Shown in pieces: positions 23,606-29,784 of a DNA stretch of 64,000 bases (position 1 is its first letter; the number at the start of each line of letters is the position of its first letter). This DNA is from Candidatus Saccharimonadota bacterium. Its GTDB lineage: Bacteria > Patescibacteriota > Saccharimonadia > Saccharimonadales > SLHW01. Where the stretch lies: NCBI GenBank assembly GCA_050486305.1, contig JBJHDA010000001.1, positions 563,071-627,070 of the forward strand, read 5' to 3'. The notes under the pieces were generated by a model. The model was given only the letters and a program-made list of their open reading frames with translations, was not told where the DNA came from and made no database searches. A program made the translations under genes and the position numbers.

Positions 23606-23905
23606 TTAAACGTCCAGGAAGACGACGACTTCATTCGATTTTACGTGCATGACGCCCTGCTGAATGCTAATCGTTTCCTTTTCACCATCGGGTTTTCGGA
23701 TAACGATATCGCCTTTCGCAAGAATTGATATGAACCGGTGATGCTTACCCAGCACGTCGAAGTTCCCGGTATCGTTAACTGCAGAAATGCTGACTGCCTC
23801 GCCATCAAAATATGTCTTGTACGGAGCATGCACCTTAACGTGCATGATACTCTCATCTGTTTGATTGGCTGCGTTCTCTTCAGGAGGAGTGTCGTTATCT
23901 GCCAT
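23606..23905 (-). CDS. atpC: ATP synthase epsilon subunit, beta-sandwich only
   Basis: Last gene of the atp operon. About 80 aa of beta-sandwich-like sequence after a short acidic N-extension. No C-terminal helical hairpin. Confidence 0.7.
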   Translation of the reverse strand: MADNDTPPEENAANQTDESIMHVKVHAPYKTYFDGEAVSISAVNDTGNFDVLGKHHRFISILAKGDIVIRKPDGEKETISIQQGVMHVKSNEVVVFLDV

Positions 23906-23932
23906 CTGCGCTCACGTTTCTTTCTACCTGCG

Positions 23933-25240
23933 TTAGGCGATAATCTCTTCAATGCTTCGCAATGTTTCTTCGCGGGTTGAATATTCACCTGGCACGCCAG
24001 TGTGCTTTGTCATAACGGTCATATTCTGGGTAAAGTTCTTGATCAGCTTCTTCGCCTTCGCGTAATCAGCCCGATCGGCCGGGGATAGCTCGTTCTCGCC
24101 GATAATAGCGATAATACCCTTTAATGATTCGTACTTTTGCAGCAATGACTGGGCCCGCACGCTCAACACATAGTGCCGATCACCGACAACTTCCGGCGTC
24201 AATAGCGCCGAGGTTGTTTGGCTCAAGTCTACCGCCGGGCGAATACCCTGCTCGGCAACTTTACGGGAAAGTACGATAGTTGCGTCTAGCTCATGTTGGA
24301 TCATTTGCACGGCCGGGTCAGATAAGTCGTCAGCCGGAACATAAATAGTCTGAACAGAAGTAATAGAGCCGTTTTCGTTGGAGCTTAACCTGTCCTGCAG
24401 GACCTTAATGTCTGAGAAAATGGTCGGCTCATACCCACCTTCGTTCGGCACCTGATCCAAAATCGTTGCCAGCTCGTTTCGCGCCTGTACAAAACGGTAC
24501 ATGTTGTCAGCGAAAAACAAGATGTCCTTGCCCTCATCATCACGAAACGCTTCGGCGAGTGCTACCGACGTCGTCGCAATCAGCGACCGCTGTACCGGGT
24601 TTTCGTTCATCTGCGCGAAAAACATGCACGTATTCTTAAGCAGGTCGTTCTCACGGAGCGTATCCCAAAGCTCGTGACCCTCACGAATACGCTCACCAAT
24701 ACCGGCAAAGAACGAGAGACCGGAGCCGCTCTTGGCAATATTGTTAATCAGCTCCATCGTCAACACCGTCTTACCAACACCAGCACCACCGATAATACCG
24801 ATTTTGCGGCCCTTAACAAACGGGGTAAAGAAGTCGATAACCTTGATGCCAGTCTCCAGTATCTCCGGCTTTGCAATCTTAAATTCTTTTGAGCGCGGCG
24901 GCAGTTTTAGGATGTCTTTAAACACGAGGTTTTCACCGCTTACCGGAGCCAAGCCATCAAGCGGATCACCAAGTGCGTCTAATATTCTGCCGATTGTGAG
25001 CTCACCTGTCGGTATTTCTATTCCGCGGCCGGTTCGCTTAACCTTCATGCCCTTTTGTATATTGCGGTTACTTCGGATGTTTAGGCACATCGCAATACCG
25101 CCGGATTCTAAGTGGTCCACGAGTAATTTCGTATCTTGGCCATTATCGACAAGAATAACTTCACCGATGCTCGGTGCCTCGGCATCGAACGCAACGCGTA
25201 CCACAAGGTCTTTCATTGACACAACAACACCAGGGTTCAT
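23933..25240 (-). CDS. atpD: ATP synthase F1 beta subunit (divergent, 435 aa)
   Basis: Walker [16 protein letters not shown], Walker B-region [11 protein letters not shown] and a GENELSPAD equivalent of the DELSEED loop. ATGA overlap with atpG. Confidence 0.9.
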
Positions 25241-26109
25241 ACGTTGGCCCCCGATCTTGCTTTCTTGAGTCCATTAATAATCTCTTTTAATCGGCTGTCC
25301 TTTATTGCTCGACGGGCTCTGTTGTATTCCAGGTGCAGCTCCTTTTTTGCCTCATCGGCGCGCTCGTGCGAAGCCGACATAGCGCGGAACCGGCTGGCAT
25401 ACTGAGCTAGCTTAGAGTCAAGAATCAGCTGGCTAATCGCAATCTGCATCATGGTGCTTTCTAGGTGGTCAACAACCTCGTACGTGCTCGGCTCGAAGAT
25501 ATAGTTTGCCTCGCTGATGATATCCGGATTTTCGTCGTCTTCCTCTGCCTGCTTTCCCCGTTGGGCGACAGCACTGGACAGCTCAATCCGGCGCACATCC
25601 TGCACCATCAAACTTACATACTGCTGATAGAACACTGTGGTGCCTTTGTATTTCTGCACCTCATTAACAATCGGTGTAACATTAATATTCTGATCTTTTT
25701 TGGGTAATTTATAGTATTTTTTATACGAAATACCGCGCTGTGCAAGCTGAATCGCACCATGGTGCCCGATCACAATTATCTCGTGTCTTTCTTTGTCGTA
25801 CATTTTTAGCAGCTCTTTGATGAGCTTCTGGTCAATGTCACCGCTAAAGCCACCCTCTGCTGTAATAATTATGAGCAGTTCTTTATCAATCACCTCATCT
25901 TCTGAGCTGCTGCGCCCAAAACCGAAAATTGGGCTGACCTTCAGCTGAGAGTAGATTTCCCACAGCTCATTAAAAAATTGCGTTGCCTGAAGCACTTGGT
26001 TTTTAATTTGGGCAATCCGCATACTGGCAATACCTTCGAATGCGCTGGTTAGCTCAAGCAGCGTGCCCATTGATTTTTCTTCTTTTTCTAGTTCGAGCGG
26101 ATGCTTCAT
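25237..26109 (-). CDS. atpG: ATP synthase F1 gamma subunit
   Basis: Position between alpha and beta, 290 aa, with conserved terminal helices ([11 protein letters not shown] ... ITKELIEI-type ending LKEIINGLK). ATGA overlaps on both sides. Confidence 0.8.
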
Positions 26110-27716: not shown

Positions 27717-28303
27717 TGCGCCGCCTCCGTCGTTTGGGCTTGAGGCTGTACTTCAGGCTGCTGTGGCGCTGGTTGCGTCTCAGCCTGAGGCTCAGTATTT
27801 GATTTGAGACTAGAGACATACTTCATCAGCAAGCCGCGCTTCTTCCGAAAATCCTCCCGCAAACTTAAATCAAACACCTGGTTGGTGGAACGTATGACAC
27901 ACCCGGCCCCGATATTCGGTTGCAGCCCGACCTGCACTAAAACGTATGGGTGAATTGTCGAGCGTAAATAATCTGTCAGTTTACCGAGAAATAGTGGTGA
28001 TGGATCAACGCTAAAGCTAATATGCAGCTTAGGTCCACTGTCGCGGAGTGATGTCAAAAACTGTCGCAGTGTTGCCCGGTCTTCTTTTTTGAGTAAATTC
28101 AAATCATTATTCGTTGCCACGGCATCAAGCAGCTTGCTCATTTTTGGCAGACTCATCGTTGTGCCAGGCTCACGGATCGAAGACTGATGCATAAAATCGT
28201 CAAGCGACTCCATTTCTCTTGCCAATCGGCTTACGTCCATTACCCCAACAACACTGTTAGGGAGCTCGATTTTCTTTGTATCATGCGTATCTTTATGAGC
28301 CAT
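27713..28303 (-). CDS. atpH: ATP synthase delta (OSCP-like) subunit
   Basis: Operon position. C-terminal [20 protein letters not shown] resembles the OSCP C-terminal motif. Confidence 0.65.
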
Positions 28304-28916
28304 CCTGCAGGTCCCGGATTATGACGTCTTTGTTTTGTTCTATGTCAGAAATTATAAAGTCTAGCTGGTCATTCAAATCTATCTGATCACCGATAGCCGC
28401 TAAGACGTAGTGATTCACGATATCACCGATATTTTCTTCGAACCGCTTGAGCATATGAGCTTTCTCTGACTCAATCTCTTTTACGAGCTGTTGACCCATC
28501 ACTTGCCGCTGCTGCTCGATAGCCTCCTGCGTTTTGGTAATCGAATCTATGGCCATTTGTTTTGCGTCGGTAATTGATTCTTCGTATTTAGAGAACTCGT
28601 CCTGCAGCTTTTTGGTAATTTCGTCTTTCATGAACTCATTCAGCTGAGAGGTGGTCAAGCGAAGGTCTTGCTGAAGAAACATGGCATTCTCGCCGATAAT
28701 TTTTTCGAAGTGTAATCTACCCCTGTTTCGGAGTTCTTCACGAAATTCATCGTTAAAGATGTGCTCGACATCACGCTCTGCCTCGTCAAAGTGGCTGCCC
28801 GCAGCATCACGGGATTGCTTACCGGCACCATTACTAACGCGCAGGCCGAGCCAGATAATTGCCACAGCGGTGGCCGCTATTCCTACAAGTAATGCTGCTA
28901 GTCCGTATATATCCAC
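28293..28916 (-). CDS. atpF: ATP synthase b-like subunit
   Basis: GTG start, a single N-terminal TM (LAALLVGIAATAVAIIWLGL), then a long charged helix. Operon position matches. Confidence 0.6.
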   Translation of the reverse strand: MDIYGLAALLVGIAATAVAIIWLGLRVSNGAGKQSRDAAGSHFDEAERDVEHIFNDEFREELRNRGRLHFEKIIGENAMFLQQDLRLTTSQLNEFMKDEITKKLQDEFSKYEESITDAKQMAIDSITKTQEAIEQQRQVMGQQLVKEIESEKAHMLKRFEENIGDIVNHYVLAAIGDQIDLNDQLDFIISDIEQNKDVIIRDLQDGS

Positions 28917-28947
28917 GTAATTATCCCACCTCTCGTGTATTGCATTA

Positions 28948-29784
28948 CTACAATCTTAAGATTAAATATACTCCAAAAATACCTATTATGAAAATGATAA
29001 GCCCGACAATAACCACCTGTAACATCCCGCGGATAATCGACCGCTTCGATAACGGGTTACGCCCAATAGACGTGATACTGCTGCGCACACCGCTGTACAT
29101 CAGGCTGCCGGCGATAAACGTACTGATAAGGAAGATGAATGTCGCGATATACACCCGGTTCGCCGGTACGGAATCACCCGCGATAGACTCAGCAGCTTGC
29201 CGCAGGAACTCCGGCAGGTTCGCCTCCGTCGGTTTCTGCAGCGGGTTGCGTGCTGCCAAAACATCGACGTCGATACGTCCGATGGAAACGGTCCTGTCGC
29301 CGGCTTGTGCCGTACCGACAGCATTGCTGCCGTCAAAGCCGCTGAGTGCCCGACCGATAACGACTGGCACTATGTCATTCACTCGCATACCGATGCCTTC
29401 CAGAGACGAAATAGTGATAAAATCACCGGGTTCGATTGACCCGTTCTGCGTACTTACCAGCACCCGATAACGGCCCTGGGTGGCGACAAACACTTCGGAT
29501 TCGGAATCACCAGAGAGCGTTACGGCTGCATCGTTCGGATTGATAACTACCCCGTAAAGCTCCTCGACCCGTTCTAGCGTAGCGGGACGGACTTTGCCGG
29601 TGTCTTCTTGGTCGAGAACAACGATCAGGCCTCGCTCCAGCCGTTCATCGCTATCAAAGCCTTGGGCAACAGACTGGGCATCAGCCAGCGGAAAATTGAG
29701 CGCAAGAATTACGAGCGCGATGAGGCCTGCCACAGCCATGACTTTTTGCACTGAAAACCATTGTCTTATTTTTGTCTTATTCAC
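28948..29784 (-). CDS. signal peptide + about 190-aa extracytoplasmic domain + C-terminal two-TM hairpin with R-N-P loop (c-subunit-like, no carboxylate)
   Basis: Lies 32 nt upstream of atpF on the same strand. The C-terminus is IATFIFLISTFIAGSLMYSGVRSSITSIGRNPLSKRSIIRGMLQVVIVGLIIFIIGIFGVYLILRL. Confidence 0.6.
   Translation of the reverse strand: MNKTKIRQWFSVQKVMAVAGLIALVILALNFPLADAQSVAQGFDSDERLERGLIVVLDQEDTGKVRPATLERVEELYGVVINPNDAAVTLSGDSESEVFVATQGRYRVLVSTQNGSIEPGDFITISSLEGIGMRVNDIVPVVIGRALSGFDGSNAVGTAQAGDRTVSIGRIDVDVLAARNPLQKPTEANLPEFLRQAAESIAGDSVPANRVYIATFIFLISTFIAGSLMYSGVRSSITSIGRNPLSKRSIIRGMLQVVIVGLIIFIIGIFGVYLILRL

Follow-up and report, generated by a model that had tools for sequence, protein, structure and literature searches.

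A conserved F1-like ATPase operon of Saccharimonadia with a predicted membrane subunit that ends in a c-subunit-like hairpin

Results

Layout of the operon

The window (the whole 64-kb stretch of DNA analyzed here) contains a seven-gene operon on the minus strand. Its open reading frames run from a 278-aa gene (g278) through b-like, delta-like, alpha, gamma and beta genes to epsilon, with ATGA overlaps at the delta/alpha, alpha/gamma and gamma/beta junctions. The original prediction had given this gene order, which was borne out by the open reading frame coordinates and by Pfam and NCBIfam subunit matches; the three overlaps it listed are all present, and the gene upstream of g278, which it took for a cysteine desulfurase, indeed matched Aminotran_5. 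Promoter-like sites were no more numerous in the operon region than in shuffled sequence, and the one listed below is of low confidence.

29827..29856, minus strand: promoter-like site TTCAAA-18-TACAAT with TG, just upstream of g278 (low confidence)
28948..29784, minus strand: g278, 278 aa, GTG start (open reading frame, homologs, AF2 model)
29677..29784, minus strand: g278 residues 1-36, predicted signal peptide or N-terminal anchor (hydropathy; AF2 helix 12-30)
29164..29676, minus strand: g278 residues 37-207, predicted beta-rich extracytoplasmic domain (Foldseek; weak Pfam XM1_gp53 match)
28951..29163, minus strand: g278 residues 208-278, predicted c-like two-helix hairpin (translation, ortholog columns, Foldseek, hhalign)
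29053..29064, minus strand: g278 loop Gly-Arg-Asn-Pro, residues 241-244 (translation; 81/81 orthologs)
28293..28916, minus strand: b-like peripheral-stalk protein, 207 aa (hydropathy, AF2 model, column identity)
27713..28303, minus strand: delta-like protein, 196 aa (PDB profile search; weak Pfam OSCP and NCBIfam delta matches)
26106..27716, minus strand: alpha subunit, 536 aa, divergent (Pfam, NCBIfam, motifs)
25237..26109, minus strand: gamma subunit, 290 aa (Pfam ATP-synt E 9e-35; under NCBIfam cut-offs)
23933..25240, minus strand: beta subunit, 435 aa (Pfam, NCBIfam, motifs)
23606..23905, minus strand: epsilon subunit, 99 aa (Pfam ATP-synt_DE_N, residues 21-97)

The F1 head and the stalk proteins

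Alpha, gamma, beta and epsilon were identified by Pfam and NCBIfam, and all four scored under the NCBI curated cut-offs for canonical subunits (375 bits against a cut-off of 484 for alpha, 421 against 463 for beta). Alpha and beta are 36% and 42% identical to their E. coli counterparts, and the nearest 50%-cluster representative of beta is 48% identical. Alpha retains the P-loop GDSKSGKS and the Arg finger 'RPA', while beta carries GGAGVGKT and GERIREG within its 435 aa and its catalytic motifs, Walker B Asp and VPADD are kept across ~60 orthologs. Judged by these motifs the catalytic residues of the F1 are conserved, which together with the low model scores agrees with the earlier description of the subunits, beta included, as divergent yet catalytic-looking. 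Several termini are modified: alpha is ~10 residues shorter than E. coli alpha at its N-terminus, beta has ~28 fewer C-terminal residues than canonical beta, and epsilon consists of the N-terminal beta-sandwich alone, lacking the C-terminal helical hairpin as had been noted before. The Lys/Glu-rich tail of alpha was also seen again, starting at around residue 470, though it is not kept among orthologs.

The b-like protein has a single transmembrane helix at its N-terminus, which leads into a second helix of ~140 residues (hydropathy; AF2 pLDDT 76.9, from a single-sequence model built with no alignment) and is unusually well conserved, with a mean column identity of 73%. It had no match in Pfam, PDB or Foldseek searches, and it aligns in register with E. 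coli b at a weak score that 1 of 100 shuffles attained. The C-terminal half of the delta-like protein matches the delta/OSCP C-terminal domain, while its N-terminal half has no assignment; delta/OSCP proteins accounted for 13 of the 16 matches in a PDB profile search, all in one register (best E 0.018).

g278, a predicted membrane subunit with a c-like hairpin

Searches for g278 found 857 homologs, and its AF2 model has a mean pLDDT of 83.7. Residues 1-36 combine a basic N-terminus, whose 'KTKI' is kept in homologs, with a hydrophobic helix and an 'ADA|Q' site where the protein may be cleaved. The domain that follows adopts, in the model, the fold of phage capsid decoration or cement proteins and of the N-terminal anchor domains of tail fibres and appendages. 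Foldseek matched it to the outer shell of Borrelia phage BB1 (8pkh) and to Pam3 8hdt_G (E 6e-5) in the PDB, and in BFVD at E 4e-11 with an rmsd of 2.3-3.9 A over ~145 columns. This phage-decoration-like domain of ~170 residues is predicted to face the cell exterior.

Several lines of comparison indicate that residues 208-278 are homologous to the c subunit. F-type c subunits were the top Foldseek matches of the hairpin region (TM 0.77-0.84, rmsd 1.6-1.9 A), and a 68-sequence hairpin profile aligned with c subunits in register over 68 columns (hhalign, 88.9%, P 2.4e-6). The window's own g278 had no match to Pfam ATP-synt_C (PF00137) and no sequence match among all NCBIfam models, but three distant family members matched the full ATP-synt_C model just below threshold (E 5e-4 to 6e-3). 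Relatives in other CPR lineages form a bridge from the family to c subunits, and the homology is supported by these transitive links together with the profile and fold comparisons. The GRNP loop motif is invariant in 81/81 g278 orthologs and persists in homologs at only 26-28% identity, with a chance expectation of 0.0005-0.003 per loop. Its Arg lies 36 residues from the C-terminus, a spacing that agrees with 11 reference c subunits, and by sequence GRNP appears to be the counterpart of the polar R-Q/N-P loop through which c contacts gamma and epsilon. One family member has been named 'subunit c' by JGI.

The ion-binding site, however, does not have its c-subunit residue. Twenty residues past the loop Arg (R+20), where 11/11 reference c subunits have Asp or Glu, g278 has the hydrophobic Leu262 (nt 28999-29001). 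Neither hairpin helix contains Asp or Glu in the 81 orthologs, and among ~175 hairpins a helix-2 acidic residue occurs just once, at R+23 instead of R+20. Helix 2 does hold a polar amide (Gln at R+14 in 75/81, Asn at R+15 in 84/94), which could be part of an unconventional binding site.

Taken together, g278 reads as a signal peptide or anchor, an ectodomain and a c-subunit-like hairpin, and would be the membrane subunit of the complex. The original prediction described a single 278-aa secreted-domain protein in a canonical slot that held neither a nor c. The secreted part of this description agrees with the predicted ectodomain, and the lack of a was confirmed, with none in the window; the c gene, by contrast, was overlooked, as this very protein appears to end in a divergent c hairpin.

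Distribution and relation to canonical F1Fo

The operon had ~450 matches in Saccharimonadia species genomes (GTDB), from which 80 loci were fetched. All 80 share the seven genes and their order, so the layout was kept in the comparison of related genomes that had been suggested at the outset, and this recurrence exceeds chance. The operon is also found in Microgenomates-type CPR, and four loci (L085, L088, L089 and L090) carry the same module in other neighbourhoods or gene orders. A run of secreted proteins lies downstream of the operon in the main Saccharimonadia clade; such surface-protein neighbours are absent beside it at these four loci, and the module of L088 adjoins a giant ORF. Subunit a was found at none of 90 related loci from several CPR lineages, nor was a conserved polytopic membrane protein found beside the operon across related loci.

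Cultured strains, TM7x and Southlakia, have the canonical operon only; in Southlakia it is single, there is no second F1 set, and the a/b/c genes accompany their own delta, alpha, gamma, beta and epsilon. In the complete genomes of S. aalborgensis, GWC2_44_17 and M. amalyticus, a, b and c are reported once and alpha, beta and gamma twice, whereas a, b and c are reported in none of the bins and reference MAGs of order CAILAD01, several of which have alpha plus beta, gamma or epsilon (PMC12592800 Table S5). We infer that the operon is a paralog coexisting with canonical F1Fo in some genomes, and it may stand alone in others.

Discussion

The reading that we favour, and hold to be somewhat probable, is that the operon encodes a second, non-canonical F1-like rotary ATPase, paralogous to F1Fo, which hydrolyses ATP without translocating ions. 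The c-like g278 subunits would form a ring beneath gamma and epsilon. With no ion-binding site and no a channel, this complex would be uncoupled from the ion gradient and capable only of ATP hydrolysis, which is in keeping with an epsilon that has lost its inhibitory helices. Hydrolysis would rotate or strain the ring against the b/delta stator and so move the ectodomains that crown it at the cell surface, doing mechanical work on a putative extracellular partner. The motor thus probably uses ATP for work at the cell surface and not for ATP synthesis. Rotation itself is assumed, because without subunit a the anchoring of the b-like helix relative to the ring has no clear source.

An ion-translocating ATPase of unconventional design, whose ring binds H+ or Na+ through, for example, Gln or Asn in place of the helix-2 carboxylate and whose ion path comes from the b-like or a distant protein, is unlikely. 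CPR bacteria, which lack respiratory chains, must energise their membrane somehow (PMC8080830). The conserved helix-2 amide and the retention of a stator (b-like and delta-like), as in a torque-coupled machine, also speak for it, but the amide lies around one and a half turns cytoplasm-ward of the canonical site and the single acidic exception is displaced. To our knowledge every characterised F/V/A-type rotor ring uses Asp or Glu, and the loci offer neither subunit a nor another polytopic protein to supply half-channels and the essential Arg.

FliI/SctN are related to the alpha and beta families, FliH to b/delta and FliJ to gamma. This kinship, together with the secreted-protein run in the main clade, would suit a non-rotary role: F1 would be a static or reciprocating ATPase whose activity remodels the ectodomain protein or neighbouring surface proteins, exports them or anchors them, much as FliH/FliI/FliJ serve type III export. 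We regard this as quite improbable, since alpha, beta, gamma and epsilon are all F-type and F-type NCBIfam models far outscore FliI/SctN models on them, export-gate proteins are absent, and the four distant loci lack the surface-protein neighbours.

Of the two options first put forward, a non-canonical membrane partner, likened at the outset to the mycoplasma F1-like clusters, is favoured by the conserved, operon-specific g278 and the lack of a in 90 loci. A split but ordinary F1Fo, with a and c encoded elsewhere and g278 an unrelated passenger, is very improbable: Saccharibacteria do have canonical atpB/atpE and the b-to-epsilon order is canonical, but the canonical a/b/c genes of Southlakia sit in a complete operon that has its own F1; complete genomes reported with a duplicated F1 set carry a, b and c just once, and CAILAD01 bins with F1 genes have none of them (PMC12592800 Table S5); alpha and beta here score under curated cut-offs, at no more than 36-42% identity to E. 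coli; and g278, inherited together with the other six genes at 80/80 loci and, amid different flanking genes, in four distant lineages, itself appears to be a c homolog retaining the gamma/epsilon-binding loop.

Comparison with known systems

The second F1-like ATPase proposed here shares with canonical F1Fo (atpIBEFHAGDC; E. coli, Southlakia epibionticum SEML1_0349-0358) the order c-b-delta-alpha-gamma-beta-epsilon, translational coupling, the alpha/beta catalytic residues, the delta C-terminal domain and a c-type hairpin with its R-N/Q-P loop equally far from the C-terminus. It differs in lacking subunit a and AtpI, in a predicted c homolog in which a signal peptide and a 170-residue ectodomain precede the hairpin and the ion-binding Asp/Glu is missing, and in the trimmed alpha N-terminus, beta C-terminus and epsilon helices. 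N-ATPase (atpDCQRBEFAG) is likewise a second divergent F-type operon alongside the canonical one. However, N-ATPases have AtpQ and AtpR as well as an a and a c of their own, the latter carrying an ion-binding Glu, and their models scored far below cut-off on our operon (TIGR03305, 376 against 752; TIGR03324, 314 against 750).

In the beta tree of Seymour 2023 (PMC10066038), beta of TM7 (Ca. Saccharimonadia) falls among 'non-respiratory' F-type homologs and groups with the Omnitrophota F-type set, also a non-canonical set of ultra-small host-dependent bacteria. That set, for which the study describes no accessory or membrane subunits, adjoins type IVa pilus genes, whereas no pilus cluster lies beside the operon here.

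The mycoplasma type 3 F1-like X0 (MSC_0618-0624/MMCAP2_0575-0581) and type 2 (M. mobile gliding) clusters are also extra F1-like sets beside canonical F1Fo in genome-reduced, host-dependent bacteria; they too lack the usual a and c, and include a membrane protein in which a signal peptide precedes a large non-cytoplasmic part, with a pair of transmembrane helices at the C-terminus (PMC3369863, PMC12994834). They differ in having a 12-TM protein alongside a small cytoplasmic one, no b/delta homologs and another gene order (PMC3369863, PMC12994834), whereas our operon keeps b-like and delta-like proteins and has no 12-TM protein; the NCBIfam MSC_0618 and MSC_0619 models scored on it under their own cut-offs and under the canonical models. 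For both mycoplasma types, ATP-driven work at the cell surface has been proposed or shown (gliding for type 2, MIB-MIP reset for type 3; PMC3369863, PMC12994834), and we suggest a parallel here. The best reading of the operon is that it represents a system of the mycoplasma F1-like X0 kind, in variant form.

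The operon and its F1 head

We found the seven genes as tightly packed open reading frames on the minus strand, in the order that the original prediction had given (first gene, b-like, delta-like, alpha, gamma, beta, epsilon), and the ATGA overlaps described there are present at the delta-like/alpha, alpha/gamma and gamma/beta junctions.

Genes of the operon, with the basis of each assignment
28948-29784, minus strand: g278, the first gene, 278 aa (open reading frame)
28293-28916, minus strand: b-like protein, 207 aa, with a single N-terminal transmembrane helix (open reading frame and hydropathy)
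27713-28303, minus strand: delta-like protein, 196 aa (open reading frame)
26106-27716, minus strand: alpha (Pfam/NCBIfam)
25237-26109, minus strand: gamma (Pfam/NCBIfam)
23933-25240, minus strand: beta (Pfam/NCBIfam)
23606-23905, minus strand: epsilon, 99 aa (Pfam/NCBIfam)

A scan for promoters and terminators near the operon gave nothing above shuffled background.

The Pfam family ATP-synt_ab matched the alpha and beta proteins (E 3e-65 and 2e-63), ATP-synt matched gamma (E 9e-35) and ATP-synt_DE_N matched epsilon (E 5e-15), the last over the N-terminal domain alone, in agreement with the claim that epsilon lacks the C-terminal helical hairpin, the inhibitory part of the subunit. The four proteins are as divergent as had been proposed, all scoring below the curated NCBIfam equivalog cut-offs for the canonical subunits: 374.8 versus 484.45 bits for alpha (atpA), 421.4 versus 462.85 for beta (atpD), 102 versus 194.45 for gamma (atpG) and 49.7 versus 67.25 for epsilon (atpC). 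Compared with the canonical operon of E. coli, alpha and beta are 36% and 42% identical, the alignment of gamma is confined to its C-terminal helix, and BLASTP detected no counterpart of g278, the b-like protein, the delta-like protein or epsilon. Beta is 76-84% identical within its clade; among the representatives of all other 50%-identity clusters, drawn from 1.84 billion proteins, the closest is 48% identical to it. The catalytic appearance of the head was borne out in around 60 orthologs, across whose alpha and beta subunits the P-loop, the catalytic Glu (GER), the Walker B Asp and the Arg finger are kept; the conserved motifs include the Walker B Asp and VPADD in beta, and GDSKSGKS and the Arg finger in alpha. 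The Lys/Glu/Ala-rich tail of alpha (residues ~470-536, window 26106-26310) shows no sequence conservation across orthologs, and its length differs between them (stop-to-stop frames span 475-614 codons); it has the look of a low-complexity appendage, not of a domain.

A c-subunit hairpin in the first gene

The original prediction had recognized no c gene in the canonical slot. This did not hold: g278, which occupies the canonical atpE slot, carries a divergent c-subunit hairpin, recognizable by its loop motif, spacing and fold. Its N-terminal part is basic and has a hydrophobic helix and an ADA|Q site; this is followed by ~170 residues of beta-rich domain, then a short helix and two C-terminal transmembrane helices. 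As the loop between these helices is positively charged, the positive-inside rule places it in the cytoplasm and the beta domain outside, a predicted topology that is also that of subunit c. The loop reads Gly-Arg-Asn-Pro in 81 of 81 orthologs, and an R-N/Q-P cytoplasmic loop in a two-helix hairpin is a PROSITE-type signature of subunit c; the chance expectation of [GSTA]-R-[NQ]-P is 0.0005-0.003 per 20-residue loop. A homologous lineage at 28% identity retains 'SIGRNPLA', and two further lineages carry 'NGIEALGRNPLAG' and 'KGVEGIGRNPLARR', sequences close to the canonical 'VEGIARQPE'.

In 11 of 11 reference c subunits, the loop Arg is followed after exactly 20 residues (position R+20) by the ion-binding carboxylate; the E. 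coli sequence among them agrees with RefSeq over its first 40 residues and in length. These references have 35-44 residues after the loop Arg; the window protein has 36 after Arg242. Its R+20 position is Leu262, and the position is Leu, Ile, Val, Phe or Met in all 81 orthologs and Val, Ile, Leu, Phe, Ala, Gly or Thr in all 94 distant homologs. No Asp or Glu was found in either hairpin helix of the 81 orthologs. Helix 2 does contain a conserved polar amide (window 28999-29019, g278 residues 256-262), which is a Gln at R+14 in 75/81 Saccharimonadia sequences and an Asn at R+15 in 84/94 Microgenomates-type sequences (homologs P0402-P0499).

When an AF2 model (pLDDT 83.7) was compared with the PDB by Foldseek, the hairpin matched F-type c subunits best, among them those of Chloroflexus (9itt_H/I), of a mammal (6j54_K) and of the A. 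woodii ring (4bem); TM scores were 0.77-0.84 and rmsd 1.6-1.9 A. Aligned by hhalign to c subunits, a profile of the close Saccharimonadia orthologs alone reached a probability of 4.6% (P 0.009); the match became convincing through the addition of distant homologs, when a profile of 68 hairpins reached 88.9% (P 2.4e-6) against the c profile, in an in-register alignment of 68 columns that takes in the loop and its two flanking helices. Pfam and NCBIfam scans of the window protein gave no family except a weak phage minor-capsid match, and Pfam ATP-synt_C (PF00137) matched three distant members over the full model length at 17-21 bits (gathering score 24); one distant member is annotated as 'subunit c' by the JGI pipeline. 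The usual atpE slot is therefore filled by a c homolog whose ion site has been lost and to which an ectodomain has been added.

The original prediction that subunit a is missing was upheld in the 64-kb window by phmmer, by the Arg motif and by hydropathy, and six-frame scans of the window and 90 related loci with E. coli a and a pattern for the essential Arg gave no match to subunit a (ATP-synt_A). A c subunit of the usual type was likewise not found within the window (phmmer, c-subunit HMM and hydropathy), and no conserved polytopic membrane protein accompanies the operon in the 90 loci. We also weighed a protein with five transmembrane helices (43778-44773) as a disguised subunit a and rejected it, since it is MgtE, the sole polytopic protein of the window. 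The identification of the first gene as a carboxylate-less c homolog inside a conserved, a-less operon is well supported.

Ectodomain and stalk proteins

Foldseek searches of the PDB assigned the g278 ectodomain the fold of phage capsid decoration or cement proteins, matching the outer shell of Borrelia phage BB1, Pam3, XM1 gp53 and T1, with lambda gpD ranked lower. It also matched the N-terminal domains of phage tail-fibre and preneck-appendage proteins in BFVD (E 4e-11), with rmsd of 2.3-3.9 A and 20-26% identity. Phage decoration and appendage domains dock onto symmetric assemblies, often as trimers.

A profile of 37 delta-like orthologs retrieved delta/OSCP chains as 13 of its 16 PDB matches (best E 0.018), all 13 aligning the C-terminal domain in one register; against Pfam OSCP the delta-like protein scored 15.4 versus 22.3 bits, and the N-terminal domain was without a match. 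The canonical delta of Southlakia (SEML1_0353) is a protein of 126 aa that matches only the delta N-terminal domain (PMC10633639). The delta-like protein (27713-28303) matches the C-terminal domain only, and the two look complementary. The b-like protein is predicted by an alignment-free model (pLDDT 76.9) to form a transmembrane helix followed by a single helix of ~140 residues. It gave a weak in-register hhalign signal with E. coli b, a score reached by 1 of 100 shuffles, and no match to Pfam, to PDB sequence profiles or, with the model, in Foldseek. Its mean column identity of 73% is far above usual b-subunit conservation.

Distribution and genomic context

Scanning a single genome from each species, we retrieved around 450 stretches encoding the first gene. 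Homolog names assign the source organism to Saccharibacteria/Saccharimonadia. In the comparison of related genomes that the original prediction called for, the same seven-gene arrangement recurred in 80 of 80 fetched loci, preceded by metG, tatD and csd (cysteine desulfurase) in that order as far as each contig extends. The seven genes also recur with other neighbours in three loci from distant lineages (L085, L088 and L089), in one of which (L089) the operon is flanked by ribosomal protein genes. Another (L088:1-5526, GCA_020050275.1) has the operon adjoining a giant open reading frame, >5046 aa long and extending beyond the end of the locus; such frames have been reported from Omnitrophota (Seymour 2023, PMC10066038). 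In a Blackburnbacteria MAG (L090) the seven genes are shuffled, with beta ahead of delta-like and alpha, and two small 23S-rRNA-IVP/bAvd-like genes are inserted within the operon (L090:4389-4778 and 8617-8865); named homologs of this branch come from Patescibacteria, Blackburnbacteria and Daviesbacteria. In a further, divergent arrangement (L087:10001-19918), beta (P0400) stands apart from a 125-aa OSCP-like gene and alpha, with dnaG, rpoD and an 802-aa gene between them, and a, c, b and gamma were not seen nearby.

Downstream of the operon, window positions 17179-23596 hold a series of genes for secreted or surface proteins. Three of these lie beside the operon.

Secreted/surface-protein genes beside the operon
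22619-23596, plus strand: p325, one transmembrane helix, weak bactofilin-like beta-helix match
21749-22474: p241, C-terminal 'ATG[QR]Y'
20372-21604: p410, C-terminal 'ATG[QR]Y'

Three more genes of the series encode proteins of 356 aa, 338 aa (weak Fn3/WxLIP matches) and 332 aa (PKD). The genes p325, p241 and p410 follow the operon in most of the 80 Saccharimonadia loci and are not beside it in distant lineages, and we rejected them as obligate partners since the synteny is limited to the main Saccharimonadia clade. A type IV pilus neighbourhood, as for the Omnitrophota homolog, was not found either, the neighbours being housekeeping genes and secreted proteins. Elsewhere in the window we observed a tmRNA gene (48179-48560, minus strand; Rfam 76 bits), a tRNA-Glu(TTC) gene (63155-63229, minus strand) and, at 10917-13930 on the minus strand, two overlapping genes that lie upstream of ruvX and yceG: the first encodes a 436-aa FtsA/PilM-like protein with an actin fold, the second a 568-aa product without a Pfam match.

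Relation to the canonical enzyme

A single canonical operon (atpI-a-c-b-delta-alpha-gamma-beta-epsilon) is present in Southlakia epibionticum, along with only two ATP-synt_ab proteins, and the canonical enzyme of this species is dispensable (PMC10633639). BlastKOALA counts, on which their authors do not comment, list one each of a, b, c, alpha, beta and gamma in TM7x and RAAC3_TM7_1, and one each of a, b and c with two each of alpha, beta and gamma in Ca. Saccharimonas aalborgensis, GWC2_44_17 and Ca. Mycosynbacter amalyticus (PMC12592800 Table S5). In the order CAILAD01 (13 bins and two reference MAGs), a, b and c are found in none, and alpha is found in several, together with beta, gamma or epsilon (PMC12592800 Table S5). 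The Omnitrophota beta groups with a Saccharimonadia sequence (Seymour et al., PMC10066038). Together these sources are consistent with a paralogous second ATPase, which may, on the published KO counts, co-occur with the canonical operon.

A possible mechanical motor

We infer that the operon encodes a mechanical motor. The c-like subunits would form a ring beneath gamma and epsilon, and the complex would be unable to exchange energy with an ion gradient and would therefore run solely as an ATPase. Relative to the b/delta stator, the ring would be turned or strained by ATP hydrolysis, which would move an external crown of ectodomains, and this motion may act on a surface process, by analogy with the type 2 (gliding motor) and type 3 (F1-like X0 ATPase) systems of mycoplasmas (PMC3369863, PMC12994834). 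Tentatively, and with more doubt than conviction, we propose that the CPR (Saccharimonadia, Microgenomates and others) may carry a separate class of F-type motor. Its c-ring, once an ion turbine, may have become a transmembrane shaft driven by ATP, with a phage-decoration-like domain displayed outside by each subunit; the torque of F1 would then be passed to an extracellular crown that rotates or twists and acts on the envelope, appendages or a host cell.

As CPR bacteria are without respiratory chains, their ATP synthase is a long-standing puzzle. Reconstructions count alpha, beta and gamma matches as "F-type ATPase" and therefore overstate the ATP-synthase capacity of genomes with this operon, possibly extending to whole orders such as CAILAD01. 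To our knowledge, all rotary ATPases studied couple rotation to ion flow through the a/c interface, the exception being the F1-like machines of mycoplasmas, the membrane parts of which are still not understood. The parts encoded here are much simpler: a lone c-derived subunit and a lone b-like helix, with subunit a absent; and, with the shaft-binding loop kept and the ion site lost, they offer a clean case of what an F-type motor does once cut off from the ion gradient. Ca. Mycosynbacter amalyticus, listed with two sets of alpha, beta and gamma, is an organism whose report is cited among those of cultured Saccharimonadia (PMC12592800), so the question may be open to experiment.

Comparison with known systems

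In the literature searched on Saccharibacteria and the CPR we found no description of the operon or of a c-ectodomain fusion. The complex is neither a mycoplasma type 3 ATPase (MSC_0618-0624, MIB-MIP) nor an N-ATPase, because the curated models of both score under their cut-offs and the accessory genes differ. For the former, MSC_0618 (beta) gave 368.4 versus 570 and MSC_0619 (alpha) 247.7 versus 520, both below the canonical-model scores obtained here. The type 3 cluster has a protein with 12 transmembrane helices and a small cytoplasmic protein, and no b or delta (PMC12994834), whereas the present operon has b-like and delta-like proteins and no polytopic protein within it or conserved beside it. 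The N-ATPase models TIGR03305 and TIGR03324 gave 376.4 versus 752 and 313.7 versus 750.5, and N-ATPases have their own a and c as well as AtpQ and AtpR, whereas the cluster here is without a, AtpQ and AtpR. We dismiss a canonical F1Fo enzyme: neither its defining subunit a, looked for in the window and 90 related loci, nor the c carboxylate at R+20 was found. In their working, the F1-like X0 ATPases of mycoplasmas are probably the closest known systems, from which the motor proposed here would differ in a membrane sector that appears simpler and visibly derived from Fo.
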